Shown in pieces: positions 12,282-35,985 of a stretch of DNA of 48,316 nucleotides (the stretch's first letter is position 1; each line of letters starts with the position of its first letter). Under the pieces are notes generated by a model. It was not told where the DNA came from, searched no databases, and saw only the letters and a program-made list of their open reading frames with translations. The stretch comes from Dehalococcoidia bacterium (GTDB lineage: Bacteria; Chloroflexota; Dehalococcoidia; Lucifugimonadales; UBA2985), in assembly GCA_015661155.1 (NCBI GenBank), contig JACVQK010000020.1:1-48316 (forward strand). The letters run 5' to 3'. Made by a program: the position numbers and the translations under genes.

Positions 12282-13358
12282 ATGGCAGCAGTGGGTATAC
12301 CACGTCGGGCGCTCCTTCTGGCAGTGCTGCTCGTGCTGGTTGTGGGGGTGCTGGCCGGCCTGGGTCGGGTTGGATGGGACATCCCCATCAGCTGGCAGGT
12401 CGTAGGGAACCACGGCCCGCTCATGGTGTCCGGCTTCCTGGGAACCCTCATCGGCCTGGAGAGGGCCGTGGGAATCAGGAGGCGTCCCGCCTATGCGGTG
12501 CCTGGGCTGTCCCTGGCGGGGACCCTGCTCCTCCTGGCCGGGGCGACTGCCGAGGTGGCCAGCGTGCTCACGTCCCTGAGCGCTTTAGGGTTGGCTGCTA
12601 TCTACTTCTTCCTGGCGCGGCCCTCCACCGCGTACTTCCTGGGAGTCATGGCCCTGGGCGCTTTCATGTGGCTTGGGGGCAACGTGCTCTGGGGTATGGG
12701 GCGTCCCTTTGCCGAGGTGGCCCCCTGGTGGAGCGCATTCCTCGTGCTCACCATAGCAGGAGAGCGACTGGAGCTGGGAAGGGTGCGCCGTCTCTCCGCT
12801 GCGGTGCTGGCCGCCTTCTTCGCCGCGGTGTCCATCCTGGTGGTTGGCGTGGCGACCACGGCGCTGGCATTCGACCCGGGGGTACGGGTGTTCGGAGCGG
12901 GGCTTCTCGCGCTCGCCCTCTGGCTCTTGCGGCACGACCTCGCCTGGAGGACAGCCAGGATTCCGGGGCTGCCCCGGTACATGGGGGTGGCGCTGCTCCT
13001 GGGGTATGCCTGGCTGGCCGTAGGCGGCGTGGTGGCCCTCGGCTCCGGAGGCGTCTACGGTGGACCCGAATACGACGTCCTCCTCCATGCTGTTTTCCTT
13101 GGATTTGTCATGTCCATGGTCTTCGCCCACGCCCCAGTGATGCTCCCGGCCGTGGCCGGAGTGACCATCTCCTTCACCCGGGCCTTCTATGTCCCCCTTG
13201 TGCTCTTGCACGGCTCCCTGGCACTGAGGGTCGTCGGCGACCTCGTAGGCTCCTTTCCCAGCGCCAGGTGGGGCAGCCTTTTCAACGGAGCCGCCCTGGC
13301 TCTCTTTTTCCTGGTGGTCGCGGGGTCGGCATTGATACGCAGACGTTCCAGGAGGTAG
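12282..13358 (+). CDS. Polytopic membrane protein (NnrS-like, about 12 TM)
   Basis: HGPLMVSGFLGTLIGLERA, LTIAGERLEL, HAVFLGFVMSMVFAH; His residues within membrane segments. Confidence 0.7.
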   Translation: MAAVGIPRRALLLAVLLVLVVGVLAGLGRVGWDIPISWQVVGNHGPLMVSGFLGTLIGLERAVGIRRRPAYAVPGLSLAGTLLLLAGATAEVASVLTSLSALGLAAIYFFLARPSTAYFLGVMALGAFMWLGGNVLWGMGRPFAEVAPWWSAFLVLTIAGERLELGRVRRLSAAVLAAFFAAVSILVVGVATTALAFDPGVRVFGAGLLALALWLLRHDLAWRTARIPGLPRYMGVALLLGYAWLAVGGVVALGSGGVYGGPEYDVLLHAVFLGFVMSMVFAHAPVMLPAVAGVTISFTRAFYVPLVLLHGSLALRVVGDLVGSFPSARWGSLFNGAALALFFLVVAGSALIRRRSRR

Positions 13359-13389
13359 GGAAGCGCCCAGATGTATCGGGATTGCCTGG

Positions 13390-13504
13390 AGTCTGAGGGA
13401 CACCCTCAGACTGGGCTAAGCCCAGGCCCACACCGGGCGAACTGTAGAATATGGTCAGACCCAATGCAACACCCTCCAAATCTGGGTGCAGGGCACGCCA
13501 TGCA
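13390..13504 (+). repeat. REP-like module B, core type 1
   Basis: CTGGGCTAAGCCCAG hairpin, core GAACTGTAGAATATGGTCAGAC, TGGGTGCAGGGCACGCC end. Confidence 0.75.
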
Positions 13505-13600
13505 TGCTTTATATCTCTGGGATTATTCTTGTGGTAAACTTGAAACATCTGGTAAGACGTGTGAACCTGAGCAACAGGTCGCAGCCAGGGGGCTAGAGCC

Positions 13601-15883
13601 GTGGTAGCCAGTCACCACTTAGAAGCGTACTTCGTGATTGACGACCGGCAGCGGATCCTCCGGTGGAGCAGTGCCGCCGCACTCGTGTTGGGCGTTCCAG
13701 AAGACATGGCCGTGGGACGATCCTGTTACGAGGTAGTACGGGGCCACGACTCCTTCGGCAAGGATGTCTGTCGTCCCCACTGTCCTGCGTTCGAGGCTTT
13801 GCAAAGGGGCAGCCTGACGAGTAGCTGTTCGCTCCTTGTGGACGGGCCGGGAGGCAGGGACCGCTTCTGGGCCAAGCTGGTCGCTCTGCCTGACGTAACC
13901 GGGGGTGCTCTCGCCACCCTGGTTGAGCGCCCGCCTGAGCTGTCAACCCCGGCGGGCGATTCCCAGCTTGCTGCGTCCCTTCGGCCTACGCTGGCCTCTG
14001 CCGTGGACATCGTGTGGGACCTGGCTGCCCTGGGAGCCCTGGTCACCAACCTGTCCTACGACGCTCCTGACCGTAGCATCGAGAGAGTGCTGGATGGACT
14101 CCGTCAGGTGACGGAGGCGGAAATCGCTGAACTGTTCTTGGTGGAGCCTCGTGGCAGAGACATGCTCCTTACCACCTTCCGTGGCCCCTTTCCATCGGCT
14201 TTCATGGAGATGACTCGCTTCCCTATCGGCGAGGGCTTTCCTGGGCTGGTGCTGAGCCAGGGAGAGCCGATATCGACCTCGGACCTCCTCCAAGATGCCA
14301 GGTACTTGCGAACGCGTGTGAAGGAGAAGGGGTTTCACTCCTACGTGTGCCAGCCCCTTCGTGGGCCCAAGGGCATTATCGGCGTCCTCAACGTGGCTAC
14401 CCGGCGGCCAGACATGGACATGGAGAGAGCACGGCGATTTCTCAGCTGGGTCAGCGTTCCATTGAGCACCATGCTGGACGCCGCTTCGCTCAAGGCCCGG
14501 CTGAACGCCGTGACCACGCCGCCCGGAGCTTTGGTAGACACCACAAGGAGCCATTCGGAGCTGTTGCGGGGCGTGTTGCGTCGGATGATGGCCATTGGTG
14601 ACGCCGGTGCAGGGGCGCTCTTTCTTTTGGACAGGGAGCTTGAGGGTCTGGCACAGCAGGTGACAGAGGGTGCCTTTGATGAAGCCATATGCCCTCATAT
14701 CCAACATGGAGAGTCCGGGAGATGTCCAGCCCTGTTAGAGGGCCACGGGATGGCCCTGTACGGGCCTCGCTACCGATGGTCCCCTGCTTGTCAACACGTG
14801 TCTGCCAGGGGCCAGGTGGTCCATTGCCTGCCCCTGATATCCGGGGAAGAACGGATTGGGATCATCCAACTGAGGTATGCTGCTGGTGGCCCATCACCTC
14901 CTACCAGATACCTGGCTACTCTCCTGGACATAGCTGAAGAGGCAGCCCTGGCTATCAAAAAGGCACGGGATGCTCTCCAGGAGCAGGCGAGGGCGGTGGC
15001 CCTTGAGAGCCAACTGCAAAGGGAGAGTGGCCGGAGAACAGCGCACGCGAAAGGGTCGACTGACCTTTCCGGCCCTGAGTCTCCCCGGTCTGGGGCCGAG
15101 CCTTTGCAACCCCTCCTGGATATCCGATGCTTTGGCTCCTTTGAGCTTCAACGCCGGGGAAAGCTGGTCACGCCTGACATGGTTCAACGACGTGGGGCGC
15201 TCACGCTACTGAAGATACTCCTCGTCCATGCTGGGCGGCCGGTGTCCCGGGACGTGCTGGTGGAGCTTCTGTGGCCTGAGGCAGAGCCGCGCCTCGCCGC
15301 GAATCGCTTGCATGTCCTGATGCATGCCCTGAGGCAAGTGGTTGAGCCTTCGCCGCGGGAACGGCAGTGGGCCTTCATCTGCAGGGAAGGCGACCGCTAC
15401 TACCTCGATACCAATGCCCCATACCGCCTCGACGTCCAGGAGTTCCGTAGATATGTCGACCTCGGCGAGCGGCTGGAGCGGGATGGAGACGTTGCAGGTG
15501 TCACCGTCGCCTATGAAGCAGCCGCAAACCTGTATAGAGGCGATTTCCTTGAGGACGAGATCTATGCCGAGTGGTGTTGGGAGGCCAGGGAATCTCTTCG
15601 GGAGCGATACCTGGACGTGGTGGGAAGGCTTGCGGGCCTCTACCTTGAGCAGGGCCATACCCAGAAGAGCCTGGACCTCTACCGTAGAGGCTTGAGGGCG
15701 GATCCCCTTCGAGAAGAGACCCAGTACGGCCTGATACGGGCTCTCTGGCTGGCTGGATGGCCTGCCGAGGCGCTGCGCCAGTATGAGGCGTGTCGGGCGC
15801 TGCTGGAACGTGAGCTGAGTGTCGCCCCCAGCGCTGAAATCGAGCTGCTGGTCCATCAGATTCGCGACGGTCACAAAGCGTAG
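13601..15883 (+). CDS. PAS-GAF-GAF-wHTH-BTAD (SARP-type) transcriptional activator, DnrS-like
   Basis: Cys-rich PAS-like N-terminus, GAF (GEGFPGLV), IRCFGSFEL...LLKILL...LLWPE, LYRGDFL, DPLREE. Confidence 0.85.
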   Translation: MVASHHLEAYFVIDDRQRILRWSSAAALVLGVPEDMAVGRSCYEVVRGHDSFGKDVCRPHCPAFEALQRGSLTSSCSLLVDGPGGRDRFWAKLVALPDVTGGALATLVERPPELSTPAGDSQLAASLRPTLASAVDIVWDLAALGALVTNLSYDAPDRSIERVLDGLRQVTEAEIAELFLVEPRGRDMLLTTFRGPFPSAFMEMTRFPIGEGFPGLVLSQGEPISTSDLLQDARYLRTRVKEKGFHSYVCQPLRGPKGIIGVLNVATRRPDMDMERARRFLSWVSVPLSTMLDAASLKARLNAVTTPPGALVDTTRSHSELLRGVLRRMMAIGDAGAGALFLLDRELEGLAQQVTEGAFDEAICPHIQHGESGRCPALLEGHGMALYGPRYRWSPACQHVSARGQVVHCLPLISGEERIGIIQLRYAAGGPSPPTRYLATLLDIAEEAALAIKKARDALQEQARAVALESQLQRESGRRTAHAKGSTDLSGPESPRSGAEPLQPLLDIRCFGSFELQRRGKLVTPDMVQRRGALTLLKILLVHAGRPVSRDVLVELLWPEAEPRLAANRLHVLMHALRQVVEPSPRERQWAFICREGDRYYLDTNAPYRLDVQEFRRYVDLGERLERDGDVAGVTVAYEAAANLYRGDFLEDEIYAEWCWEARESLRERYLDVVGRLAGLYLEQGHTQKSLDLYRRGLRADPLREETQYGLIRALWLAGWPAEALRQYEACRALLERELSVAPSAEIELLVHQIRDGHKA

Positions 15884-15918
15884 AGCAGACATAAGGCAGA
15901 GAAGGTTACTTGAGTTCC

Positions 15919-15986
15919 TGTAAGTCCGGGGTGAGACCGCCGCTGGAAGAAGAAACCGTGTGGGTTCATGTAAGTCTGCTGTAAGT
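15919..15986 (+). promoter_or_regulatory. Candidate SARP operator heptamers TGTAAGT
   Basis: TGTAAGT at 15919, 15969 and 15980; the last two are 11 bp apart. Confidence 0.5.
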
Positions 15987-15999
15987 GAGGGAGTTCAAT

Positions 16000-16242
16000 A
16001 TGGCTCCAGAAAGAGGATGGAGCATGGTGGACATCTCTCCTGAAGAAACGGGGACAACACCAAGGGGTAGGGTCCCATCCTTTGTGATGACGCTGTGGCT
16101 GGAGCCATTGAGTTCCCCGGACGAACCGGAGTGGAGATGGCGGGTGACGCGAGTGGACACCGGCAAGCAGTGTTACTTCCGCCGCCTGGGTGACCTGCTG
16201 TCGTATGTGAGCGCTGAGTCGGGAGTAGCAGCCCCGCGCTGA
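16000..16242 (+). CDS. Small hypothetical protein (SFVxxLW...WR.RV...TG...F..L..L type)
   Basis: ORF between regulator and cytochrome; GAGGGAG upstream of ATG 16000. Confidence 0.7.
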   Translation: MAPERGWSMVDISPEETGTTPRGRVPSFVMTLWLEPLSSPDEPEWRWRVTRVDTGKQCYFRRLGDLLSYVSAESGVAAPR

Positions 16243-16249
16243 GTAGCGT

Positions 16250-17179
16250 ATGCACCTCATCTATGGAGTAGAGCGAGGCGAAATGATAGCTTGGAGAACC
16301 GGTGCAGACACGGGGAGAAACGGTCTTCAGGTGGTTCTTGTCCTGCTCCTCCTGCTGGCTCTTGGGCTGGGTACAGGAGTGAGCCAGGCGCTGGCAGATC
16401 CACCAGGCGGGTCGGCTGAGGATGGGCAGGCACTGTTCCAAAGGAAGTGCGCTGCCTGCCATAGCATAGGCCAGGGAGACATGCTGGGTCCAGACCTGAA
16501 GGGTGTGACCACGCGTCGCGACTCCGACTGGGTGGCCCGCTTCCTGGCTGCTCCAGACCAGGTGCTGGCGAGCGGAGACCCCATTGCCACTGAGCTGCTC
16601 AGCAAGTACAACATAAAGATGCCCAACCTGGGGCTGACGGAAACGGAGGTGACCGCCCTTATTGCCTACCTGGGGACGCAGGCTGGAAGCGCACCTGAGC
16701 CGCAACCCACACTGGCTCCAATGGCGATCTTGTCAGAGGGCGATAAGACAGCGGGCAATGACCTGTTCACCGGCACTGCTCGTTTCCAAAACGGTGGCCC
16801 GCCCTGTGTGGCCTGCCACACCACCGCCGATATCGGCTTTCTGGGAGGTGGGGCGTTGGGGCCAGACCTTACCGGTGCCCACGCCAAGCTGGGAGACGCA
16901 ATGGCGGTCTGGCCCGAGACGGTGCCGCCCATGAAAGCAATCTACCAGGACAAGCCCCTGACCCAAAAAGAGAAGGACGATCTGTTGGCCCTCTTCCAAT
17001 CGGCCTCAACGGCCCAGGGCCAGCCTTGGGTCGTGGGCCAACTGGCCCTGCTGGCAGTGGCGGGATCGGCTTTACTGATGGGCCTTGCCCACCTGGTCTG
17101 GTGGCGTCGGCTGCGGGGGGTTCGCAGGGCCATGGTCGCACGTCGGACATCCCCATTCCGTGACATTTTAGGAGGGTAG
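16250..17179 (+). CDS. Membrane-anchored diheme c-type cytochrome (NarC-like)
   Basis: Signal-like hydrophobic N-terminus, CAACH and CVACH each followed by GPDL, distal Met candidates, C-terminal TM; start may be 16283. Confidence 0.88.
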
Positions 17180-17184
17180 TTAAG

Positions 17185-20100
17185 ATGGGCTGGATTCAAG
17201 ACCTGGTTGACCCCAAAGCACGCAACTGGGAGGAGTTCTACCGCAACCGCTACCAGTACGATAACGTCGTTCGCAGCACCCATGGGGTCAACTGCACGGG
17301 TGGCTGTTCATGGGCAATCCACGTCAAAGATGGAATCATCACCTGGGAGATGCAGCAGACCGACTACCCGCTACTGGAGTGCAACCTCCCGCCCTACGAG
17401 CCCCGGGGATGCCAGCGCGGTATCTCTGCCTCGTGGTACGTCTACAGCCCCATTCGGGTAAAGTACCCCTACGTCCGGGGCAGCCTGTTGGAGCTGTGGC
17501 GCAGCGCGAGGGTCCAGCACCCCAACCCGGTGGATGCATGGGCCTCTATCGTCCAGGATGAGGACAAACGCTCCCGGTACCAGGGATCTCGGGGCAAGGG
17601 GGGCTTTCGCCGCTCCACCTGGGACGAGGTGCAGGAGATCATCGCCGCCTCCTGTCTTTACACGGCCAAGAAGTGGGGCCCTGACCGGGTCTTCGGCTTC
17701 TCCCCCATCCCCGCCATGTCCTACCTGTCCTACGCGGGAGGCTCCCGGTTCCTCCAACTCTTCGGCGGCGTGAACATGAGCTTCTACGACTGGTACGCTG
17801 ACCTGCCCAACGCCTTCCCGGAGGTATGGGGCGACCAGACGGACGTGGCCGAGAGCGCCGACTGGTACAACTCCAAGTACATTGTCTCCATGGGATCCAA
17901 CCTCAACATGACCCGCACCCCCGACGTCCACTTCATCGCTGAGGCGCGGCATGAAGGGGCCAAGTTCGTCGTAATCTCACCCGACTTCAGCCAGGTGGCC
18001 AAGTACTCAGACTGGTGGATACCTGTCACCTCGGGCCAGGACACCGCCCTGTGGATGGCGGTGAACCACGTCATTCTGAAGGAGTATCACGCCGACCGAC
18101 AGGTGCCGTACTTCGTGGATTACATGAAACGCTACACCGACGGCCCTTTCCTGGTGCAGCTCACGCCCACCGAGGAGGGCTACCAGCCGGGACGTCTGCT
18201 TCAAGCCGGCCACCTGGAGCGCTACCAGGGCATCGAGAACGGGGACTGGAAGATGCTGGTGCTCGACCAGGGGTCCGACGAGCCCCGTATGCCCAAGGGC
18301 CAGGTGGGGTTCCGCTGGGGCGAGGAGAAGGGAAAGTGGAACCTGAAAATGGAAGACGGCCTGGACAACTCGCCCATCGACCCCGTCCTCACCTTCCTCG
18401 GCCAGCAAGAGCAGGTGGCTCAGGTGAGCTTCCATGACTTCGCTGGCGGGCAGACACTGCTGCGGGGCGTTCCTGCCAGACAGGTCCAGACCGCCGATGG
18501 CCCGGTGCTGGTGACCACGGCCTTTGACCTGCTCATGGCCCAGTTCGGGGTTGGGCGGGGCCTGGAGGGTGATTACCCCACCAGCTATGACGACAACATG
18601 GTGTATACGCCCGCATGGCAGGAGCAGTTCACGGGCATAGGGCGAGACACGGTCACCCGGTTGGCCCGGGAGTTCGCCAGCAACGCGGAAGCCACCCAGG
18701 GCCGCTCAATGATCATAATCGGCGCCAGCATCAACCACTGGTACAACAACAACCTCTCTTACCGTGCCCCCATCACAGCCCTTCTTCTGTGCGGCTGCTG
18801 TGGGGTCAACGGTGGTGGCATGAACCACTACGTGGGCCAGGAGAAGCTAACCCTTGTAGCTCCTTGGACCAGCCTCGCCTTCGCCCAGGACTGGGGTGTG
18901 ACCCCCCGCCGTCAGCAGTCCCCCACGTGGCACTACGTGAATAGCGACCAGTGGCGCTACGAGGGCGATTTCACCGAGTACGCCTCGGTGCCCCCCAACG
19001 CCCGTTGGGCCAAGGGGCATGCCATGGACCTGGAGGCCAAGGCCGTGCGGATGGGGTGGATGCCCTACTACCCCCAGTTCAACGAGAACCCCCTGGGTCT
19101 GGTACAGGAGGCTCAACGCGCGGGTGCCAGCTCCGATGGTCAGGTTGCCCAGCGTGTTGTCGAACGGCTCAAGAGCAAACAGCTCAGCTTTGCCGTGGAC
19201 GACCCCGACGCGCAGGAGAACTGGCCCCGGGTCTGGTTCATATGGCGGGGCAACGCCATGGCTTCCAGCGCCAAAGGGGCCGAGTTTTTCCAGCGCCACT
19301 ACCTGGGCACCCACGACAATATCGTGGCCCAAGAGCACGCCAAGGGGACGGTGAAGACGGTGCAGTTCAGAGAGCCAGCGCCGCGAGGCAAGATGGACCT
19401 GGTGGTGGACATCAACTTCCGCATGGACTCCTCGGCTCTCTACTCCGACATCGTCCTGCCCACGGCCTTCTGGTATGAGAAGAACGACCTCAATACCACC
19501 GACCTCCACTCCTTTGTGCACCCCCTGGGGGCCGCGATTCCACCTGTCTGGGAGTCCAAAACGGACTGGGAGATCTTCAAGGGCCTCGCCAAGAAGGTTA
19601 GCGAGATGGCCCCCTCAGCCTTTCCGGCCCCCCTCAAGGACCTGGTTGCCTTTCCTTTGATGCACGACACCCCGGATGAGCTGGCCCAGCGGGATGTTCT
19701 CGACTGGGGCGAGGGCGAATGCGATCCTGTGCCAGGCAAGACCATGCCCCATCTCAGGGTTGTGGAGCGGGACTACGTCAACCTGTACAACCGTTTCATC
19801 TCCCTGGGGCCACGGATACGGGACAACGGAGTCACCGGCAACGGTGTTAACGTCCCTGTCCAGCAGTTCTACGACGAGTTGCTGAAGAGCCCGGTGGGAG
19901 GCACCCCTGACCCACGACATACACGCAGCGTAGAGTGGGGTGGCAAGAGATATCCCAGTCTGGAGGATGCCCTGGATGCGTCCAACGTGCTGCTGGCCCT
20001 GGCTCCCGAGACCAACGGCGAGATTGCCTATGAGGGCTTCAAGCACGAGGAGGAGCGTGTGGGGCTGCCCCTGGCCGACCTGGCGGAGAAGGTCAGGGGC

Positions 20101-20829
20101 GTCCGCATGAACTTCCATGACCTCACCCGGCAGGTGCGCCGTACCCTCATCAGCCCCTGCTGGACAGGCATGGTCAACGACGGGCGGGCCTATGCCGCCT
20201 GGTGCATCAACGTGGAGCGCCTGGTCCCCTGGCGCACCTTGACCGGCCGCCAGCATATGTACATAGACCATCCCTACTACATGGACTTCGGCGAGCACCT
20301 CCCCACCTACAAGCCGAAGCTGGACCCCTACAAGACCGGGGACATCGTTACCAGTGAGGTGGACAGCCAGAGCCTGGTGCTCAACTACATAACCCCGCAC
20401 GGCAAGTGGAACATCCACTCCACCTACAAGGATAACCACCGCATGCTCACCCTATCTCGGGGAATGGACCCCGTATGGATCAATGACAAGGACGCCGATA
20501 GGATTGGCCTCAAGGACAACGACTGGGTGGAGATGTATAACGACAACGGAGTGGTGGTCACTCGCGCCAATGTCAGCCGAAGGGTCCAGGCAGGCACATG
20601 CCTGTACTACCACGCGGTGGAGCGCACCGTGTACATGCCCAAGTCCCAGGTCAGGGGTGGGCGGCGAGCCGGAGGCCACAACAGCCTCACCCGCACGCGC
20701 ATCAACCCTGTCTTGCTGGCCGGCGGCTATGCCCAGTTCACTTACGGCTTCAACTACTGGGGCCCTACCGGCATATTCACCCGGGACACGTACTGCGTGG
20801 TGCGGAAGCTAGAAAAGCTGGAGTGGTAG
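17185..20829 (+). CDS. narG: Nitrate reductase / nitrite oxidoreductase alpha subunit (NarG/NxrA), cytoplasmic, 1214 aa
   Basis: [11 protein letters not shown]...PRGC FS0 motif, YDWYADLP Mo-ligand Asp, [12 protein letters not shown]; no Tat signal. Confidence 0.95.
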
Positions 20830-20904
20830 CCGGCGATACCAGGGAAATCCATACATAGAAGAGCGCCGGGGCGGGGTCAGCCTTCCGGCGAGAAGGAGGG
20901 GCAG

Positions 20905-22422
20905 ATGAATGTCAGAGCACAGGTCTCCATGGTCTTCCACTTGGACAAGTGCATTGGCTGTCACACGTGCAGTATCGCCTGCAAGAACATCTGGACGGAC
21001 CGCAAGGGCACCGAATACATGTGGTGGAACAACGTGGAGACCAAGCCCGGTACGGGATACCCCACCCGGTGGGAGGACCAGGAAAAGTACAGGGGCGGCT
21101 GGGAAATGGACCCAAAGAAGCAGGGGCTGAAGCTGAAGCTCCAGGGCAGATTGGGCGCTCTGGGGAACATATTCCACAACCCCTACCTTCCCAGCATGGA
21201 CGACTACTACGAGCCCTGGACCTATGACTACGAGCACCTCTTCAATGCTCCCGAGGGCGATGACCAGCCTACTGCCCGGGCTATTTCCATGATCACAGGA
21301 AGGCACATGGACAACATTGAGGCAGGCCCCAACTGGGACGACGACCTGGGCGGCTCTCCGGTGTATGCCGACAGCGACCCCAACCTCGCCGCTCTCACCC
21401 CCGACGAACGGAGCCAGCTCAACGAAATCGAGCGGGTGGTGTTCTTCTACCTGCCCCGTATCTGCAACCACTGTCTGAATCCAGGCTGCGTGGCAGCCTG
21501 CCCCGCAGGAGCACCTTACAAGCGAGGCGAGGACGGTCTGGTGCTCCTGAACCAGGAGAAGTGCCGGGGCTGGAGGATGTGTATCTCCGGGTGCCCCTAC
21601 AAGAAGACCTATTTCAACTGGACCACGGGCAAATCTGAGAAGTGCATCCTGTGCTACCCACGCCTGGAGAGTGGCCAGCCGCCGGCCTGTTTCCACGCCT
21701 GCGTCGGACGCATCCGCTACCTGGGAGTCCTGCTCTACGACGCTGACCGTATTGAAGAAGTTGCCAGGGCTGCCGACAGAGACCTGGTGGATGCCCAGCG
21801 GGGGATCATCCTTGACCCCTTTGACCCGAAGGTCATTGCCGCAGCCAGGGCAGGCGGCATCTCCGACGACATGGTCGTGTCTGCCCAGAGGTCCCCAGTC
21901 TACAAGTTCGTGAAACTGTGGAAACTGGCCCTGCCGCTTCATCCTGAGTTCCGCACCCTTCCCATGTTGTTCTACGTGCCGCCCATGCTGCCGGTGCTGG
22001 CCAAGCTCAAGGACGGCCTCTACGAAGTTGACGGAGCAGATAGCGAAGGGCTTACACCCCTGCTCACCTCCCTGAAGCAGGCCCGGTTGCCCCTGCGGTA
22101 CATGGCCAGCCTGTTTTCGGCGGGTAATGAGGAGGTTGTTGAGGCCGTCTACCGGAAGCTCATTGCCGTGCGTCTGCACATGCGCTCCCAGCGGGTGAAG
22201 GATGTGCCTGAGGTGGAAGCTCATCGGGCCTTGGCCCAGGGTGGGATAACCCCGGAGGAGGCGGAAGCGGTCTTTCGGCTGACGTCGCTCCCGACCTTTG
22301 ATGAGCGCTTCGTCGTGCCGCCGATGGCGCGTGAGATGGCCATAGAGCCGACGGAGAATCCCCTTGCGCGCAAACAGGCGGCTGGTTTCGGCTTCCGCCG
22401 GGCAGCCAAGCGGAGGTGGTAG
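20905..22422 (+). CDS. narH: Nitrate reductase / nitrite oxidoreductase beta subunit (NarH/NxrB)
   Basis: CIGCHTCSIAC, CNHCLNPGCVAAC, CRGWRMCISGC, CILCYP...CFHAC Fe-S motifs. Confidence 0.96.
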   Translation: MNVRAQVSMVFHLDKCIGCHTCSIACKNIWTDRKGTEYMWWNNVETKPGTGYPTRWEDQEKYRGGWEMDPKKQGLKLKLQGRLGALGNIFHNPYLPSMDDYYEPWTYDYEHLFNAPEGDDQPTARAISMITGRHMDNIEAGPNWDDDLGGSPVYADSDPNLAALTPDERSQLNEIERVVFFYLPRICNHCLNPGCVAACPAGAPYKRGEDGLVLLNQEKCRGWRMCISGCPYKKTYFNWTTGKSEKCILCYPRLESGQPPACFHACVGRIRYLGVLLYDADRIEEVARAADRDLVDAQRGIILDPFDPKVIAAARAGGISDDMVVSAQRSPVYKFVKLWKLALPLHPEFRTLPMLFYVPPMLPVLAKLKDGLYEVDGADSEGLTPLLTSLKQARLPLRYMASLFSAGNEEVVEAVYRKLIAVRLHMRSQRVKDVPEVEAHRALAQGGITPEEAEAVFRLTSLPTFDERFVVPPMAREMAIEPTENPLARKQAAGFGFRRAAKRRW

Positions 22423-22424
22423 AG

Positions 22425-23039
22425 ATGGGTGAGCAAACCGTTGAACGGCGTATGTTTCGCCTGTTCGCAGACATTCTAAGCTATCCCTCCGTAGACCTGT
22501 TGGAGAGGGCAGGGGAATGCGAGGCCCTGGTTTCCACAATAAACCCCAGCGTAGCCTCCCTGGTGGGCAACTTCCGGGCCTTTGTGGAAGTGGCGTCCCA
22601 GGGGCACCTCGAGGAGCTTTATACCGCCACCTTCGACCTGGACGCGGCATATCACCCCTACCTGGGATACCACCTGTTCGGCGAGAGCTATGAGCGAAGC
22701 GCCTTTCTTCTGGAGCTCAAAGAGCGGTATCGAGCCCAGGGGTACATTGCTGATGAAAAAGAGCTGCCGGACCGCCTGTCCGTCGTCCTGGCCTTTCTCT
22801 CGGTGAGTGCCGATGCGGGCTTGAATCAAGAAATTGTCCAAGAGGGATTGTTGCCCGCGCTGGAGAAAATGATGAAACGGTCACAGGAGGCCGGCGACGA
22901 ACCCGCGGACGAACCCCCGGATGATATCCATCTCTACCAGAGCCTGCTCCTGGCGCTACAGATGCTTTTGCCTGAGTTTCAGCCGGCCTCTGTTCCAGAG
23001 GAAGAGGCCCTTTCCACAGGAGGTAGAGCCGATGATTGA
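22425..23039 (+). CDS. narJ: Molybdoenzyme chaperone NarJ
   Basis: LSYP, LEELYTATFD, PYLGYHLFGE, ELPD; position in operon. Confidence 0.9.
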   Translation: MGEQTVERRMFRLFADILSYPSVDLLERAGECEALVSTINPSVASLVGNFRAFVEVASQGHLEELYTATFDLDAAYHPYLGYHLFGESYERSAFLLELKERYRAQGYIADEKELPDRLSVVLAFLSVSADAGLNQEIVQEGLLPALEKMMKRSQEAGDEPADEPPDDIHLYQSLLLALQMLLPEFQPASVPEEEALSTGGRADD

Positions 23040-23709
23040 CATCGTCCTTTTCGCGGCCTTTCCCTACATGGCGGTGCTTGTGGCTGTCCTGGTCGGAGTA
23101 TACCGCTACTTCAACGATCGGTTCTCCTACTCCAGCTTTTCGTCCCAGTTCCTGGAGAACCGTGCCCTGTTCTGGGGCTCAGTGTCCTGGCACTATGCAG
23201 TCATCGTCATTCTGCTGGCCCATGTGCTGGCGCTGGTGTTTTCCGGCGGCTGGGCTACTCTCATCGCTGCGCCGGTGCGCCTGTATACCCTGGAGGTCAT
23301 CGGGCTAGCCTTGAGTGCGTCGGCTCTGCTGGGGCTAGTGCTACTCATCTTGAGGCGTCTCCTCAACGCACGTATCTTCACCGTCACCTCTACCATGGAC
23401 TGGGTGTTGCTGGCAGCCCTGCTGGCTCAGGTGGTCCTTGGCCTCTGGACGGCTCTTTTCTATCGGTGGGGATCAGACTGGTCTTTGGCCACGGTCGCGC
23501 CCTGGCTGGTATCCTTGGCCAAGCTCAGCCCTCAGACAGAGCTCGTCGCCTCCCTTCCTTGGGTGGTCAAGCTGCACATGCTGGGAGGGTTCGCCATCAT
23601 CGCCCTTTTCCCCTTCACTCGTCTGGTACACCTGGTTACCTTCCCGATCACCTACCTGTGGCGACCCTACCAGGTAGTGGTCTGGAACTGGCGCAAGAAA
23701 CAGACCTGA
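23032..23709 (+). CDS. narI: Gamma subunit, cytochrome b membrane anchor (NarI)
   Basis: SSFSSQFLE, WH...H and LH...PFTRLVH heme-b His pairs; GGAGG RBS before ATG 23032. Confidence 0.93.
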   Translation: MIDIVLFAAFPYMAVLVAVLVGVYRYFNDRFSYSSFSSQFLENRALFWGSVSWHYAVIVILLAHVLALVFSGGWATLIAAPVRLYTLEVIGLALSASALLGLVLLILRRLLNARIFTVTSTMDWVLLAALLAQVVLGLWTALFYRWGSDWSLATVAPWLVSLAKLSPQTELVASLPWVVKLHMLGGFAIIALFPFTRLVHLVTFPITYLWRPYQVVVWNWRKKQT

Positions 23710-23798
23710 TCGCAAGAACCACCTGGGGTTATATCACGCATTAAGGAGTAGAACCCCACCCGGGAGCTGCATGTCTGGACACGAAAAGATCAAGGTGA

Positions 23799-25136
23799 AT
23801 GAGTATGCGGGTGAGCACGCGAGCCAGTAGGACAAACAAAACAGAGCAGTTTATCCTGGCCAGCATGGGATTCTTCTGGTGTTTCCTCATGTGGTTCGCC
23901 TCGGCGGCCTTCAGCCCGAGCATCGCGGAGGACTACGGCCTTTCCATAGCGCAGCTAGGCATCCTGGCGAGCTCCGCGATATGGCTGGCACCTGTGGGAC
24001 GAATTGTGGCAGGGTGGGCGGCGGACAGGATTGGAGCGCCGAACACCTTTGCGATAATCCTGGTTTTCACGGGGCTGTTCAGCATAGGGTCGGCATTTGC
24101 AAGCAGCTACAACGTTCTCTTCATCATGCGCGTGGTCGTGGCCATGGCGGGCGTCTCCTTCGTGGTCGGAATCCAGCACGTCGCCCAGTGGTTCGAGGAC
24201 AAGGAGATTGGGCTAGCCGAGGGGCTCTTCGCGGGAACTGGAAACGTGGGAGCAGGTATGGGAGCGCTCCTGCTTCCCAGGATATACGGCACCAACTACT
24301 CCGACGCCTTTCTTCACCTGGGATTGGTGGCGCTGCTGATTGGGGCAGTGTACTACTGGCGTGGTGTGGCGGCCAAGACCGAGCAGATAGCCCGGAGAGC
24401 AGCTGCGGTTGCCACCCCTCGAGACAGCCTCTTTGTGTGGACCCGGTACTGCGCCATAGCGTTGATGTTGGCCTACGCCATGGCCTTCGGCCTGGAGATA
24501 GGCATGAACGCCTGGCTGCCAGGCTACTATGCCAAGGGGTTCTCAGAGGAGATCAAGCGCCTCGGATTCACGGGTGCCGTATCTGTCCAGGTGGCAGCCG
24601 GGACCTTCGCCGCCGTGGAATCATTCAACGCCTCTCTCTGGAGGCCCTTCTCAGGCTACATGTCGGACATATGGCAGAGGAAGGGGTGGATGCCGTTCCC
24701 GATAATCAGCAAGCACCTGCCGTATTCGCCTCGGATTCACTGGCTGGCCATGGCCCTGGTGCTGATCACCATAATGATGGTGTTGCTAACGGTGGCAGGT
24801 CTCCTGGGCTATCTGCACATGTCGGTGCTTGTACTGGCCTTCTTCGGTATCGCCATCGCCTTCGGAACAGGGGGCACCTTTGCCATCGTTCCCCTGATGT
24901 TCAGGGATCGACCGGGGGCTGCGGCAGGCTTTATCGGCGGTTTCTCCACAGGTGGAGGAATCATCTACCCACTGGTATACGGATTCTTGCCGAACATCCA
25001 CATGGGGTATGCCTTCGTCGCCCTGAGCATGTTCATACCGATCATCCTCTTCTACTTCTGGACGATGCGGTACGAGAGACATCCTGAGGAACACGGGATG
25101 GGCAGCAAGGAACACTGGCTTGGTACCGCTGCTTGA
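23799..25136 (+). CDS. narK: MFS nitrate/nitrite transporter (NarK/NNP family)
   Basis: About 12 TM; GRIVAGWAADRIG, GLFAGTGNVG and GTGGTFAIVP nitrate-signature-like motifs. Confidence 0.8.
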   Translation: MSMRVSTRASRTNKTEQFILASMGFFWCFLMWFASAAFSPSIAEDYGLSIAQLGILASSAIWLAPVGRIVAGWAADRIGAPNTFAIILVFTGLFSIGSAFASSYNVLFIMRVVVAMAGVSFVVGIQHVAQWFEDKEIGLAEGLFAGTGNVGAGMGALLLPRIYGTNYSDAFLHLGLVALLIGAVYYWRGVAAKTEQIARRAAAVATPRDSLFVWTRYCAIALMLAYAMAFGLEIGMNAWLPGYYAKGFSEEIKRLGFTGAVSVQVAAGTFAAVESFNASLWRPFSGYMSDIWQRKGWMPFPIISKHLPYSPRIHWLAMALVLITIMMVLLTVAGLLGYLHMSVLVLAFFGIAIAFGTGGTFAIVPLMFRDRPGAAAGFIGGFSTGGGIIYPLVYGFLPNIHMGYAFVALSMFIPIILFYFWTMRYERHPEEHGMGSKEHWLGTAA

Positions 25137-25151
25137 TATTCGACAAAGGAG

Positions 25152-25367
25152 ATGCATCGCATGAATAGAGCGGATGTCACGCCCGGGAGCAAGGATAGGG
25201 CTGAAGAGCACGCCCTGGAGAACGAGTTCGGAAGCGACCCGACGAAAGAGTTCGGGTACAAACGGGCTGTAGCGGCCGTGTATCTGGAGATAGTGATAGC
25301 AGTGGCCGTGACCATCTTCTCGCTCTACATGGCCCTGACAGGAACCGGGGGGTTCCCGGGCAAGTAG
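25152..25367 (+). CDS. Small single-TM protein
   Basis: AAGGAG RBS; hydrophobic C-terminal helix. Confidence 0.6.
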   Translation: MHRMNRADVTPGSKDRAEEHALENEFGSDPTKEFGYKRAVAAVYLEIVIAVAVTIFSLYMALTGTGGFPGK

Positions 25368-25423
25368 GCGCCCAACGCCACGGAGGTCGGCGGAGACGGT
25401 GATTGTAGAAGTGTAGAGACCCG

Positions 25424-25459
25424 ATCGGAGACTGGTCTACTATCGGAGACTGGTCTACT
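25424..25459 (+). repeat. 18-bp perfect tandem duplication
   Basis: ATCGGAGACTGGTCTACT twice, immediately before the RBS of the second transporter. Confidence 0.9.
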
Positions 25460-25470
25460 AAGGAGAAGGA

Positions 25471-26868
25471 ATGAAGATGGCGTCGACATGGATGAAGGCC
25501 TGGACCCCCGAGGCCCCCCAGTTCTGGGAGGAAACCGGGCGACGGATCGCCTGGCAGACGCTGATAATCACGACCCTGAGTCTCGTCTTCTCCTTTGCCA
25601 CCTGGTTCGTGATGAGCGCAGTGGTGGTCCGTCTCCCCAATGTAGGCTTCCAGTTCAGCACCTTGCAGCTCTTCTGGCTGGGGGCCATGCCCGGCCTGGC
25701 AGGAGGAACGTTACGGATACTTCACACCTTTTTGATTCCCATGTTCGGCACCCGGCACGTCATCACCGTAGCGACGCTGCTGAAGGTTCTGCCGTGCGTG
25801 GGACTGGGCCTGGCCGTCACGAACCCCGGGACGCCGTTCTGGGTCTTCGTCGCGCTGGCGCTCGCCCTCGGCCTCGGGGGCGGAGACTTCTCCTCCCATA
25901 TGCCCAGCACCAGCCTCTTCTTCCCGCGCCGGCTCCAGGGGACGGCGCTGGGCATCCAGGCCGGGATCGGCAACTTCGGCGTCAGCCTGACCCAGTTCGT
26001 CGCTCCCTGGATCATGGGCTTCGCCATCTTCGGCACCCTTCTCGGCGGCTCTCAGACATTTGTCAAGGGTGACGTCACCCGCTCCATCTGGGTTCAGAAT
26101 GCCCTCCTCTGGTTCGTGCCCTTTCTGGTTGTGATGGGCATTGCCGCATGGCTGCTACTGAGGAGCGTACCGGTGCGGGCCACCTTCCGGCAACAACTGG
26201 ATATCTTCAAAGACAAGCACACATGGTTCTGCACCATCACCTATGTCATGACCTTCGGTTCCTTTTCCGGGCTGGCGGCGGCGTTCCCGATGATGATACG
26301 AGCGCTCTATGGCGACTTTCCCGGCGGGCCTGACCCTCTCCGCTACGCATTCTTGGGACCGCTGGTGGGGTCTCTTATGCGGGTCGTCATGGGATGGCCC
26401 TCCGACCGTTGGGGCGGAAGCATCTTCACGCAGCTCGCCGGTGCAGGGCTCATCGTCTGCAGCTTGCTGCTCATTCTGGGCGGGTATCTCGCGCCGACCT
26501 CCCTTGACCAGTTCCCGATGTTTGTCATATTGATGATGCTGCTCTTCTTTTTCGCCGGAACGGGCAACGCCTCTACCTTCAGGCAGTATCCCATCATCTT
26601 TTCTCATTCGCCGCGGCAGGGTGCGGGCGTTCTCGGGTTTTCGGCGGCCATTGCCGCCTACGGTCCCTTCATCTTCTCCGGGGTGATCGGTACATCCATC
26701 GCGGCAACAGGCTCCGCGGTGCCCTTTTTCTGGGGCGCCATCGCCTTCTGGGCGCTCGCCTCTGGCATCAACTGGTGGTTTTACACCCGCCCGGGCAAGG
26801 AACGCTGGGACTTCGGTAGCAAGGGGGGAACATGGTGGGATACAAGAGCGGGAAAGGAGAACCCGTAA
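25471..26868 (+). CDS. narK: NarK2/NarT-type nitrate/nitrite antiporter
   Basis: W.PE...FW, GGGDFSS.M...S.FFP, GIQAGIGNFGVS, TFGSFSG, GTGNASTFR. Confidence 0.9.
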   Translation: MKMASTWMKAWTPEAPQFWEETGRRIAWQTLIITTLSLVFSFATWFVMSAVVVRLPNVGFQFSTLQLFWLGAMPGLAGGTLRILHTFLIPMFGTRHVITVATLLKVLPCVGLGLAVTNPGTPFWVFVALALALGLGGGDFSSHMPSTSLFFPRRLQGTALGIQAGIGNFGVSLTQFVAPWIMGFAIFGTLLGGSQTFVKGDVTRSIWVQNALLWFVPFLVVMGIAAWLLLRSVPVRATFRQQLDIFKDKHTWFCTITYVMTFGSFSGLAAAFPMMIRALYGDFPGGPDPLRYAFLGPLVGSLMRVVMGWPSDRWGGSIFTQLAGAGLIVCSLLLILGGYLAPTSLDQFPMFVILMMLLFFFAGTGNASTFRQYPIIFSHSPRQGAGVLGFSAAIAAYGPFIFSGVIGTSIAATGSAVPFFWGAIAFWALASGINWWFYTRPGKERWDFGSKGGTWWDTRAGKENP

Positions 26869-26912
26869 GGGAGTACAATGGGTCCAGAATCTCAGTTGCA
26901 GGAGAAGTGCAG

Positions 26913-27395
26913 ATGGGAATGAGGGAGCAGAACACTATCACTGAGCTACTTCAGTCGGAACACCGGTGGGTAGACGAGCGTTTCCAGGGGTTCCGGCAGC
27001 ATCTGGCCGAGGGGCGGGTCGACGCAGAGCCTTTCCAGGAAGCTGCCAAAGTTCTCTACCGGCATATCTACCTGGAAGAGGTGATACTCTTCCCGGAGGT
27101 AGAGGCACGAGGCGTGGTAGGCCCAACCGCGGTGATGGCCCAGGAACACGGCGAGATATGGCGACTCTTAGAAGGCATTCAGGACCGTATCCGGCAAAAC
27201 GCCGGGGCTGGCCGTATTCAGGACGCCTTTGATGCCCTCCACAGCCTGCTGGAGGAGCACAACTTCAAGGAGGAAAAGATACTGTATCCCTCCGCGGACA
27301 GGCTCCTGGACAGCGCTCGAGTTGTAGCACAGCTGAAGCAGGCCACCCTACCTGACGGCTGGGTGTGTCTAGCCCTCCAGTCCGGCAGAAGCTGA
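26913..27395 (+). CDS. Hemerythrin/HHE domain protein
   Basis: EH, HIYLEE.ILFP, EHGEI, HNFKEE.ILYP; AGGAG RBS. Confidence 0.88.
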   Translation: MGMREQNTITELLQSEHRWVDERFQGFRQHLAEGRVDAEPFQEAAKVLYRHIYLEEVILFPEVEARGVVGPTAVMAQEHGEIWRLLEGIQDRIRQNAGAGRIQDAFDALHSLLEEHNFKEEKILYPSADRLLDSARVVAQLKQATLPDGWVCLALQSGRS

Positions 27396-27543
27396 AATCG
27401 CTCCCTGCCAGTGCTCGCGACGCTCAGATGATGCCACGTGTATGCTGTGTTCGTATACTGACTTCGCCAGGGCCCAGGTCGCCGATGTCCATACCAAGTC
27501 CGGGCGCACCGGCCAATGGGGGATGGCGTGATTGGTCTTACCG

Positions 27544-28452
27544 ATGAGATTTCATGAGCTGTACACGACTGGACACCCAGCCATCTCCTTCGAGATAGTT
27601 CCCCCCAGAACGGCAACGACTCTAGCAGGGATGGAAGAGCGATTGCCGCAGCTCATCGCCCTGTGCCCATCCTTGATAACGGTGACTTACGGAGCGATGG
27701 GCGGCACGCGGGAGCATACTCTGGAGACCGCTTCCAGGATACAGAACGAGTACGGGATGGAGACTGCCCACCACCTGACCTGTGTAGGATTCAGCCGCGA
27801 TGAAATCAATCTCGTACTGGAGGATATCCGAAACCACAACATCTCGAACATCGTGGCCCTTCGAGGAGACCCTCCACAAGGGGAGACGGGGTTTACGTGG
27901 CCCAGGGATGGTTACAGCCACGGCAATCAGCTGGTAGAGCATATCAGCCGCTTTGGCGGATTCGGCATCGCCGTGGCGGGCCACCCGGAAAAGCACCTCG
28001 AAGCCCCCGATTCCAAGACGGACCTGCAAAACCTGAAACGCAAGGTGGATAGTGGTGCTGACGCGGTCATTACCCAGCTATTCTTCGACAACCGCATCTT
28101 CTATGACTTCGTAGAGCGGTGCCGTGCCATAGGCATCCATCAGCCCATCATCCCCGGACTTCTGCCAATCCTGGGCATGGAGCAGATCAAGCGCATCACC
28201 GGCATGTGCGGTGCGACCATTCCTGATGAGCTCTTTCGTCAGCTACAGAAGGCAGGGGACGACGAGGAACGGGTACATGAAATCGGCATAACGCACACAG
28301 CAAACCAGGCCCTGGACTTGTTGCGCCAGGGGGTCAAGGGCATTCACTTCTACGTGCCGAACCCACACTTCCCCATGGGCGAAATCATGGAGCGCATAAA
28401 GCCAGCACTATCCGGGAGCGAAGGGGTGGTGGTGGCAGAGGGGTTGGGGTAG
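27544..28452 (+). CDS. metF: 5,10-methylenetetrahydrofolate reductase
   Basis: SFEIVPP, VTYGAMG, HLTCVG, ALRGDPP, ITQLFFD, GIHFY. Confidence 0.9.
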   Translation: MRFHELYTTGHPAISFEIVPPRTATTLAGMEERLPQLIALCPSLITVTYGAMGGTREHTLETASRIQNEYGMETAHHLTCVGFSRDEINLVLEDIRNHNISNIVALRGDPPQGETGFTWPRDGYSHGNQLVEHISRFGGFGIAVAGHPEKHLEAPDSKTDLQNLKRKVDSGADAVITQLFFDNRIFYDFVERCRAIGIHQPIIPGLLPILGMEQIKRITGMCGATIPDELFRQLQKAGDDEERVHEIGITHTANQALDLLRQGVKGIHFYVPNPHFPMGEIMERIKPALSGSEGVVVAEGLG

Positions 28453-28479
28453 AGCGCGAGCTGAGGTGAGCGGTAAGGA

Positions 28480-28649
28480 GGAGTCCAGAGGGGCTACGCC
28501 CCTTTGCTGGGGGTCTGGGGGTGTCCCCCCAGACTGGGCTGAGCCCAGACCCACACCTCACGAACCGTAGAACATGGTCAGACCAGGGCAGCGACAGTTG
28601 ATTGCGGGTGCAGGGGGATGGTCGAAAGGGTTTTTCAGCACCCTGCTAA
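28480..28649. mobile_element. Composite family A + module B (core type 1) element
   Basis: AGGGGCTACGCCCCT, CTGGGGGTGTCCCCCCAG, CTGGGCTGAGCCCAG, core GAACCGTAGAACATGGTCAGAC; right end TTTTTCAGCACCCTG-CTAA abuts TSUP stop. Confidence 0.78.
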
Positions 28650-29414
28650 ACCATCCCTGACACGATCTGGCGTACTCCCCCGGCCACCAGCGCCAGGGAT
28701 AGACCCCACATCACGAACCTGTGGTTGACCCTACCGGACAGGTAAACGCCTAGCTGGGCCCCCAGAATGGCTCCAATGCCCACCAGGCCCGTCCTTCTCC
28801 ACCCCTGGCGGAACTGGCCGGTGAAGACGTGCACCAGAACGCCGGCCAGGGCGGTGAAGATCACCGTGAATTGGGAGGTGGCCGTGGCTATGGCCGTAGG
28901 GACTTTTAGCAACCCTATCAACAGGGGCAGCTCCACAATACCCCCACCTATGCCAAAGAAGCCGGAGACAAAGCCAGCTAGAGGACTCAGAAGGACCAGT
29001 GCGGGCTCGTTTACGCGGAAAAGGTACGAGCTTCGTGCCCCGCCAGAACATGTACAACGCGCCAAGGAGCATGACGAAGCCAAATATCAGCTCGAACTGG
29101 CTTCTGCTGACAAATCGGGTTAGCAGAGCGCCCGCGACTCCCGCTGGAACTGCGCCGATGGCTAACAGAGTGCCCGTCCGAATATCGATGCGACCCTGGC
29201 GGTGGTAGCCCCATGTGCCGGATGTAGCGTTAAGGAAGACGACAGCCAGAGAGATGCCGGTGACGGTGGTAGGAGAGGATGCGGGGAAAAGGAGAAGGAG
29301 CACCGGCACCAGGATGAATCCCCCGCCAACTCCCAGGAGCGTCCCGAAGGCTCCTGCGGCAACACCCAGCAGAGGTAGCCCGACCAGGTGATACGCCGTC
29401 AGGTCAGCGGGCAT
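28646..29414 (-). pseudogene. TSUP (TauE/SafE) sulfite exporter-family protein, frameshifted near 29010-29040
   Basis: GVGGGFILVP half in ORF 28731-29414 and GIGGGIVELP half in ORF 28646-29083. Confidence 0.75.
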
Positions 29415-30780: not shown

Positions 30781-30801
30781 GGGCAGGGCGTGCCCTGCAT
30801 G

Positions 30802-32046: not shown

Positions 32047-32055
32047 TTCATGGTC

Positions 32056-34512: not shown

Positions 34513-34584
34513 TGCGGCTCCTCTCGAACTTCAGCGGATTCCTCTCGAGGAGGAAGAGGAAGGGCCGGCGATGGGGACGGCATC

Positions 34585-35977: not shown

Positions 35978-35985
35978 CAGAAGGT

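Follow-up and report, generated by a model that had tools for sequence, protein, structure and literature searches.

A probable Thermus-type respiratory nitrate reductase operon, horizontally acquired, in a Dehalococcoidia-like genome

In Thermus, the narCGHJIKT operon supports anaerobic growth on nitrate and is described as horizontally transferable; the same account presents NarC as a membrane-bound periplasmic dihaem cytochrome required for maturation and attachment of NarG, and DnrS as an oxygen-sensitive activator (PMC7694296). It further describes the Nitrobacter cluster as very similar to that of Thermus, with electrons passing via NarI and NarC homologues to an oxidase (PMC7694296). 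The nitrite oxidoreductases (NXR) and nitrate reductases (NAR) of the cytoplasmic Nar/Nxr branch are stated to be reversible, with Nitrobacter NXR reported to run backwards, and the aa3-type cytochrome c oxidase is given as the terminal oxidase of nitrite oxidizers that use a cytoplasmic NXR (PMC3504966). NirC alongside NarK is stated to be universal in these nitrite oxidizers, and the energy yield of nitrite oxidation by the cytoplasmic enzyme is described as low (PMC12998223). For ‘Ca. Microthrix’, reduction of nitrate to nitrite in situ is reported, with the nar annotation called ‘ambiguous’ (PMC8267870). Here we analyse a nar operon within a 48,316-nt stretch of DNA, referred to below as the window, which is the entire contig C62 of the Dehalococcoidia-like genome G000. 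The original prediction had taken this locus for an NXR-like operon and its host for a candidate nitrite oxidizer or a user of a reversible NXR/Nar. We conclude that it is probably a Thermus-type operon for a cytoplasm-facing respiratory nitrate reductase, acquired horizontally by an ancestor of this genome.

All four core subunits score above the NCBIfam equivalog cut-offs and far beyond chance. The alpha subunit (NarG/NxrA type, 1214 aa, predicted to be cytoplasmic; 17185–20829, + strand, as are all genes given here) reaches 1500.1 bits with the narG model, against a cut-off of 1084.15. The beta subunit (NarH/NxrB type, 505 aa; 20905–22422) is an iron–sulphur (Fe–S) protein with 646 bits for narH (cut-off 524.05), Pfam matches to Fer4_11 and Nitr_red_bet_C, and the N-terminus MNVRAQVSMVFHLDKCIGCHTCSIACKNIWTDRKG. 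It is followed by a NarJ-type assembly chaperone of 207 aa (22416–23039; narJ, 67.4 versus 59.35 bits; Pfam Nitrate_red_del) and by the gamma subunit NarI, the dihaem b membrane anchor (23029–23709; Pfam Nitrate_red_gam, 2.3e-63; narI, 114.3 versus 105.55 bits). The open reading frame (ORF) of NarI opens at 22921, and its Pfam match covers residues 41–255 of that long frame; since the match begins only at residue 41, the start is likely to be at 23029. Ahead of alpha lies the gene for a NarC-like membrane-anchored dihaem cytochrome c of 309 aa (16250–17179), with two CxxCH motifs (Pfam Cytochrom_C, 1e-15), a hydrophobic stretch at the N-terminus and a hydrophobic helix at the C-terminus, and ahead of this a DnrS-like sensor-regulator of 760 aa (13601–15883) with PAS, GAF, winged-helix and BTAD domains (Pfam BTAD, 5.6e-27; GAF_2, 2.9e-19; Trans_reg_C; PAS).

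Downstream of narI are two genes for transporters of the major facilitator superfamily (MFS). The first, a NarK-family protein of 445 aa (23799–25136), matches TIGR00886, the NarK family model, with E 2e-44 and 152 bits, under the subfamily cut-off, as well as Pfam MFS_1; the second, a NarK/NarU-type nitrate/nitrite transporter of 465 aa (25471–26868), matches TIGR00886 at 1.1e-80 (271 bits; cut-off 311.7) and the NarU model at 5.3e-78. The end of its gene is overlapped by that of a hemerythrin-domain protein of 187 aa (26832–27395; Pfam Hemerythrin, 5e-18), which may have a role in oxygen or NO sensing or in repair. The functional unit extends from ∼13.6 to 27.4 kb, regulator through hemerythrin, on one strand. 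The extent originally assigned, 16250–23709, covers the core operon correctly and cuts the unit short, leaving out the regulator, the transporters and the hemerythrin.

Several features of this unit recur in Thermus. On a plasmid of Thermus thermophilus JL-18 the order is GAF regulator, c-type cytochrome, narG, narH, chaperone, narI and MFS; the window likewise places a dihaem cytochrome c gene first in the operon and has two tandem MFS nitrate/nitrite transporters after narI. Its cytochrome c is 34% identical (E 6e-18) to the cytochrome upstream of Thermus narG, and its regulator matches the Thermus one in two collinear blocks, the Cys-rich N-terminus with GAF (35%, E 9e-36) and the winged helix with BTAD (30%, E 3e-17). 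The Thermus alpha subunit is the sister group of the clade that holds the window alpha. The two systems differ in alpha identity (61%) and in two alpha motifs, NCTGSCSW and WYCDLP in Thermus as against NCTGGCSW and WYADLP in the window; moreover, in Thermus the regulator gene is transcribed divergently and has the Crp-family protein DnrT as a partner, whereas the window regulator lies on the same strand as the operon. The gene order cytochrome c–GHJI–transporter had been read as NXR-like, yet it equals the narCGHJIKT/dnrS layout of nitrate respiration in Thermus.

Inside alpha are NCTGGCSW and WYADLP, and its C-terminus is RKLEKLEW. Read directly, the N-termini of alpha and beta have neither a twin-arginine motif nor a hydrophobic leader; because no twin-arginine translocation (Tat) or Sec signal is present on either subunit, the alpha active site is predicted to face the cytoplasm. 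These observations, together with the cytochrome c, the alpha length and the start of beta, agree with the original prediction, as does the lack of an nxrX gene between alpha and beta: the gap there, 75 nt, is too short for an nxrX-like gene. The H-x3-C-x3-C motif, the fourth Cys and the Asp of YDWYADLP align with E. coli NarG, and on the strength of the E. coli structure literature we take these residues to be the FS0 ligands and the Mo-ligand Asp. E. coli NarGHJI (1Q16) thus shares with the window the four core genes, the FS0 and Mo-Asp ligands and a full-length alpha alignment (E = 0 to the PDB chains); it differs in its lower identity (48%), in having no cytochrome c subunit, in the position of narK upstream and in its regulation.

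Database relatives of alpha at 76–84% identity number at least 120, all of 1208–1224 aa, and come from metagenome-assembled genomes (MAGs) labelled Dehalococcoidia, SAR202, Anaerolineae, Caldilineaceae, Gemmatimonadetes, Acidobacteriota, Burkholderiales and Acidimicrobiales. The listed representative of the alpha protein cluster is a 41-aa protein named glycine reductase, and the cluster offers no useful names. When one genome per species was scanned, 396 relatives were found; among the best 80 of the 396 (72–83% identity), which were used for locus comparisons, are Nitrococcus mobilis Nb-231, two Ca. Microthrix MAGs and one Thermomicrobiaceae MAG. In aligned alpha sequence, the window is 83.4% identical to its counterpart in a Dehalococcoidia MAG (locus L024), 77.2% to Microthrix, 76.9% to the Thermomicrobiaceae MAG and 73.4% to Nitrococcus NxrA; the values are 72.3% for a Bradyrhizobium-labelled MAG, 61.4% for Thermus NarG and 47.8% for E. 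coli NarG. Among plasmid records the nearest alpha is again Thermus NarG (59–61%), with proteobacterial and actinobacterial NarG at no more than 48.7%.

In an alpha tree of 93 rows (LG+G4, quick search), 89 form one clade with support 100. As the original prediction would have it, this clade lies far from the canonical NarG of E. coli, Paracoccus and Streptomyces; Thermus is its sister branch, so that the window alpha is outside the Thermus group itself. The window falls inside a set of 30 rows (support 97), where it is joined by Dehalococcoidia MAGs, by a Nitrococcus/Thermomicrobiaceae/HR28 group and by a group of Burkholderiales, Gemmatimonadaceae and Alphaproteobacteria; Microthrix is in the sister set. 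Reanalysis of 41 of the 93 rows under LG+C20, again with a quick search, gave the same picture; the internal branches are short (0.01–0.03) and support for the window set dropped to 91 under this mixture model, which limits the weight of the grouping with Nitrococcus. In the beta tree (55 rows) the window is in the clade with support 98, pairs with a Chloroflexota MAG and stands outside a 15-row Nitrococcus set. The only validated NXR in these trees is that of Nitrococcus: sequences named for Nitrobacter or Nitrolancea were not among the matches listed for the window alpha, for Nitrococcus NxrA or for the alpha of the Bradyrhizobium-labelled MAG, mostly the same unnamed or MAG proteins each time, nor among the best 80 of the 396 relatives. 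The clade mixes one validated nitrite oxidizer with many heterotroph MAGs, and the enzyme belongs to the branch that holds cytoplasmic NXR, with no specific alliance to a nitrite oxidizer. The original prediction is thus supported in placing alpha in the cytoplasmic Nar/Nxr branch with a validated NxrA; beta does not group with the Nitrococcus set. Two sequences met during this work deserve separate mention. The alpha and beta of L101, titled ‘uncultured archaeon’, nest in alphaproteobacterial sequences beside the Bradyrhizobium-labelled MAG, and its label or binning is doubtful. A 1175-aa frame in the same-order genome G020 (C24:20846–22966, L002), 27–35% identical to the window alpha, is a different enzyme of the type II dimethyl sulphoxide (DMSO)-reductase family.

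The window can be compared with one oxidizer and one heterotroph of the clade. The cytoplasmic NXR of N. mobilis, of a type that the literature gives for Nitrobacter and Nitrolancea as well, shares with the window 73% alpha identity, the 30-row set, an upstream cytochrome c, chaperone and gamma genes, the lack of a signal peptide and the lack of a gene between alpha and beta (80-nt gap); it differs in that Nitrococcus has RuBisCO, an A-type oxidase and NirC, none of which was found in G000, in having no DnrS-like regulator within 8 kb, and in its beta subunit, which groups apart. Ca. Microthrix, a heterotroph of the Acidimicrobiia, shares 77% alpha identity, both motifs, the cytochrome c–GHJI–transporter layout and, in the genome searched, the absence of RuBisCO; it differs in its place in the sister set and in the A-type oxidase of its MAG.

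The cues on which nitrite oxidation had been proposed are shared more widely. NCTGGCSW and WYADLP occur in Microthrix, Nitrococcus and all other aligned clade members, and so are not specific for NXR; E. coli instead carries the two motifs seen in Thermus. Of the 71 loci in which 900 nt or more precede alpha, 70 have a homologue of the cytochrome c gene immediately before it, as does Thermus, so that this cue is not specific either. A linked narK-like gene is present in no more than 14 of the 53 loci for which 7 kb downstream are available. Homologues of the DnrS-like regulator are found in 21 of the 80 clade loci, including L024, L027, L050 and L066 of the Dehalococcoidia group and not including Nitrococcus. 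The supposed hallmarks of NXR are thus features of the whole branch, nitrate reducers included. The sole locus without the upstream cytochrome c, L103 (8001–11645) of an alphaproteobacterial MAG, consists of an orphan alpha gene that lacks neighbouring genes for cytochrome c, beta, delta and gamma, reminiscent of the extra nxrA copies described for Nitrolancea. Separately, in 18 of 52 loci (e.g. L064, L040, L053 and L076–L102) the alpha–beta gap is 426–1082 nt and could fit an nxrX-like gene; such gaps are found mainly in proteobacterial, Gemmatimonadaceae and Thermomicrobiaceae loci and are absent in Nitrococcus and the window.

The host genome comprises 1.81 Mb in 101 contigs and is 92.9% complete with 3.65% contamination; the host negatives that follow rest on that completeness. 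RuBisCO gave no PF00016 match in G000, Nitrococcus being positive in the same search, and none was found in the seven sub-clade hosts searched, five of them titled Dehalococcoidia. Strong RuBisCO matches were present in 16 of 49 clade genomes searched, belonging to Nitrococcus, the Thermomicrobiaceae MAG, one Burkholderiales MAG, Eremiobacterota/Limnocylindria and Alphaproteobacteria. No A-type (aa3) haem-copper oxidase was detected in G000 by hidden Markov model (HMM), nor did tblastn of the cox operons of two relatives against G000 give a match. An A-type subunit I is encoded by 25 of 30 relatives, including all 18 with at least 90% completeness and at most 5% contamination. The orthologue of a cox-flanking gene lies on C54, 981 nt from the contig end, and no COX2 similarity follows it. 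The sole haem-copper oxidase of G000 has a distant subunit I of cbb3-like type (224 bits with the ccoN model, which is under the cut-off; C58:4382–6786, locus L104), followed by a fused dihaem subunit. Cytochrome bd, NirK, NirS and NrfA were not found in G000; NirC gave no PF01226 match there, Nitrococcus again being positive; and no NiFe hydrogenase exceeded the cut-off. The genome does have three NuoD loci, MoaA and two NIR_SIR-family genes.

A cluster at C91:2109–22017 (covered in part by locus L111, C91 9000–28999) encodes formyltetrahydrofolate synthetase (FTHFS), carbon monoxide dehydrogenase (CODH), acetyl-CoA synthase (ACS) alpha/beta (956 bits against a cut-off of 800), AcsC, AcsD, AcsV and a CooC-like ATPase. 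Methylenetetrahydrofolate reductase (MTHFR; 27532–28452, Pfam MTHFR 1.3e-78) is encoded apart from this cluster, beside the nar genes and without being one of them, and fits the Wood–Ljungdahl genes. CODH/ACS is shared with only one of the 30 relatives, the 55%-complete family member G007. An argument that the host lacks carbon fixation was consequently dropped, CODH/ACS and FTHFS being present. Of the two host traits that the original prediction had singled out, carbon fixation is represented by the CODH/ACS Wood–Ljungdahl cluster and not by RuBisCO, and terminal oxidases by one cbb3-like enzyme and not by aa3 or cytochrome bd. An 802-aa double CoA-transferase family III protein is encoded at 5820–8228 of the window; with 19 matches in G000 and as many as 43 in the genome of a relative, this family is strongly expanded in the order. 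Together with peptide-type ATP-binding cassette (ABC) transport genes in the window, these CoA-transferases suggest organotrophy. Overall, the family is mostly aerobic, and G000 seems to be a low-oxygen or anaerobic outlier in it. Elsewhere in the genome, a molybdopterin-oxidoreductase-like frame of 939 aa with one in-frame TGA (C48:19114–19599) is a possible selenocysteine formate dehydrogenase and as such would be in keeping with the Wood–Ljungdahl genes.

From the operon layout, the regulator and this inventory we infer that the enzyme works in the nitrate-reducing direction. NADH dehydrogenases would supply quinol, to be oxidized by the dihaem b anchor NarI; the Fe–S clusters of NarH would relay the electrons to the Mo-bis(molybdopterin guanine dinucleotide) site of NarG, loaded with its cofactor by NarJ, where cytoplasmic nitrate would be reduced to nitrite. 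The two MFS transporters would bring nitrate in and nitrite out. NarC would act as a fourth, periplasmic and membrane-anchored subunit, serving maturation and membrane attachment as in Thermus, and may also branch electrons to periplasmic carriers. Low oxygen would lead the regulator to activate the operon. Since no NirK, NirS or NrfA was found, nitrite would be the end product of this respiration.

That the contig belongs to G000 is supported by housekeeping genes on either side of the nar segment and by a repeat family found throughout the genome. On the left, IlvC is 74–84% identical to its counterparts in the family and 67–74% to those in the order's other families; on the right, YchF reaches 61–75% identity within the family and 48–58% outside. 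When YchF was compared with the genomes of 49 of the 80 clade loci, it was closest to genomes with Dehalococcoidia-titled loci (61%, 55% and 51%) and to the Thermomicrobiaceae MAG (56%), with no more than 50% elsewhere, so that the host is Chloroflexota and closest to MAGs labelled Dehalococcoidia, as had been proposed. Its top structural neighbours, clusters mostly from Chloroflexota, are a further but weak hint of this. Nine genes at 29616–43172, where synteny begins at 29616, match the YchF loci of five relatives, all family members, and in two of them all nine are matched. By tetranucleotide profile C62 is the fifth closest of 59 contigs. The repeat is ∼140 nt, GC-rich, with short hairpins and no Rfam match; it occurs at 392 merged loci on 80 of the 101 contigs, about one per 4.6 kb and mostly intergenic, and its word depth in two metagenome runs is 150–720 against ∼5 in the flanks. 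Nine such loci lie on C62 (1553–1670, 13340–13620, 28440–28700, 30790–30960, 37392–37607, 40436–40580, 42965–43202, 44638–44780 and 45670–45756).

The copies at 13340–13620 and 28440–28700 mark the left and right edges of a 15-kb segment that contains the nar unit and the MTHFR gene; 59 nt of the left copy (13403–13461) match 28526–28584 of the right one at 86% identity. No copy lies inside this island, and as another 11.7-kb stretch of the contig also has none, no significance is attached to this. None of the 30 relatives carries an alpha orthologue, the best match reaching 35% identity, and this over a fragment. Of 400 genomes sampled evenly across the order, five carry one (79–83% identity), in four other families, and none of 23 members of the host's own family does. 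This distribution, 0 of 23 in the family and 5 of 400 in the order, argues for horizontal acquisition. The composition of the island is no outlier (9 of 84 windows of the same size are farther from the genome mean), and, being ordinary, reveals neither its donor nor its age. In relatives, PurD and the gene at 47034–47957 are found beyond the HemN-like gene beside YchF (loci L017, L021 and L022), while in G000 they are beyond DapF (43223–47957); this difference in order indicates that a rearrangement accompanies the site of the nar segment. A joint of 13503 to 28534 (side 21 letters), seen in both runs, was considered as an island-free variant and rejected, the two repeat copies being sufficient to explain it. 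The window stretch is present in a freshwater run, possibly the source sample (share 0.91), and in a subsurface run from a different study (0.69), with no RNA run among those listed. The freshwater and subsurface runs both yielded exact contigs; these are short (≤1.7 kb), and none bridges the island edges. Ten groundwater runs with shares of 0.06–0.12 were not used for habitat. In the window, promoter-like and terminator-like sites were not enriched over shuffles (5 versus 4.6 and 9 versus 10.2), and neither Rfam families nor tRNA genes were found.

Were the operon foreign to the genome, as a mis-binned contig or a chimera of a nar island and Dehalococcoidia DNA, its absence from every family member, the number of contigs, the estimated contamination and the lack of a short contig across the island edges would be readily understood. 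The family-best matches of IlvC and YchF on both flanks, the nine-gene synteny, the ordinary composition of contig and island, the genome's own repeat at both island edges and elsewhere on the contig, and the similar word depth of operon and flanks in the two runs all speak otherwise, and we regard such an artefact as very improbable. We give equally little credence to a dedicated chemolithoautotrophic nitrite oxidizer, the first in Dehalococcoidia, fixing CO2 via the Wood–Ljungdahl pathway. The position of alpha near Nitrococcus, the terminal oxidase and the presence of CODH/ACS, FTHFS and MTHFR would suit it; CODH/ACS, however, is oxygen-sensitive, and we know of no aerobic nitrite oxidizer that uses it. 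RuBisCO, aa3 oxidase and NirC were not found, RuBisCO was absent from all sub-clade hosts searched, beta does not group with Nitrococcus, and the CoA-transferase matches and peptide-type transport genes point to organotrophy.

A reversible enzyme is a less extreme alternative: the host would respire nitrate when anoxic and, at micro-oxic interfaces, oxidize nitrite as an additional electron donor via NarI and NarC to the cbb3-like oxidase, as a mixotroph and not an obligate nitrifier. In its favour are the sub-clade shared with Nitrococcus NxrA, the C-family oxidase of cytochrome-c type with its following dihaem subunit, the reverse operation reported for Nitrobacter NXR (PMC3504966) and the described likeness of the Nitrobacter cluster, with its NarI/NarC route to an oxidase, to that of Thermus (PMC7694296). 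Against it, no feature specific to nitrite oxidizers was found, including NirC, said to be universal among them (PMC12998223), and aa3 oxidase; the regulator resembles one activated by anoxia, and the energy yield is described as low (PMC12998223). We consider it unlikely, and a part-time NXR that passes nitrite electrons via NarI and NarC to the cbb3-like oxidase, with Wood–Ljungdahl as sole carbon-fixation route, more doubtful still; if true, it would be the first nitrite oxidizer in the class and the first cytoplasmic NXR paired with CODH/ACS.

We therefore favour a nitrate-respiring operon of Thermus type as the probable explanation, and several points weigh against it. Alpha shares its sub-clade with Nitrococcus NxrA and the RuBisCO-bearing Thermomicrobiaceae MAG, not with the Microthrix set. 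The NXR and NAR of this branch are described as reversible (PMC3504966), and with a cytochrome c subunit and a cbb3-like oxidase electrons could in principle pass from nitrite to oxygen; the caveat in the original prediction, that direction is not readable from sequence, was correct. Wood–Ljungdahl carbon fixation is encoded in the genome. As no nitrite-consuming enzyme was found, the nitrite formed would need to leave the cell or be assimilated; the genome has two NIR_SIR-family genes. The function of DnrS is established in Thermus alone, the window regulator is 30–35% identical to it, and a scan of the neighbouring ORFs, confined to the neighbourhood, found no DnrT-like Crp/Fnr gene. About 7% of the genome is missing, and RuBisCO, aa3 oxidase and NirC could yet be encoded in that part. 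Finally, nitrate respiration is here predicted from gene content.

The original prediction had placed the enzyme in a lineage not known for it, which for nitrate reduction does not hold. Dehalococcoidia narGHI and napAB are reported among the most abundant such genes in hadal sediment (PMC11291871), one Dehalococcoidia MAG is reported with nar, nir and nosZ (PMC10982107), and for this branch NXR-like enzymes of non-nitrifiers have been on record since 2012 (PMC3504966). Nar genes of Dehalococcoidia are thus already known; what is mildly notable is the rarity of the operon in the order, its co-occurrence with CODH/ACS and the apparent loss of aa3 oxidase.

Genes of this branch are routinely annotated as ‘nitrate reductase / nitrite oxidoreductase’, which can inflate counts of putative nitrite oxidizers in metagenomes. 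Since the usual cues for NXR, namely motifs like those of Nitrobacter, a cytochrome c gene upstream and linkage to narK, are common to the branch, genome context must decide. For the organism itself, the locus would represent a rare horizontal gain of nitrate respiration, by a recipient that comes from a mostly aa3-bearing lineage and has changed over to a low-oxygen gene set, and thus a modest and concrete example of a niche shift in subsurface Chloroflexota.

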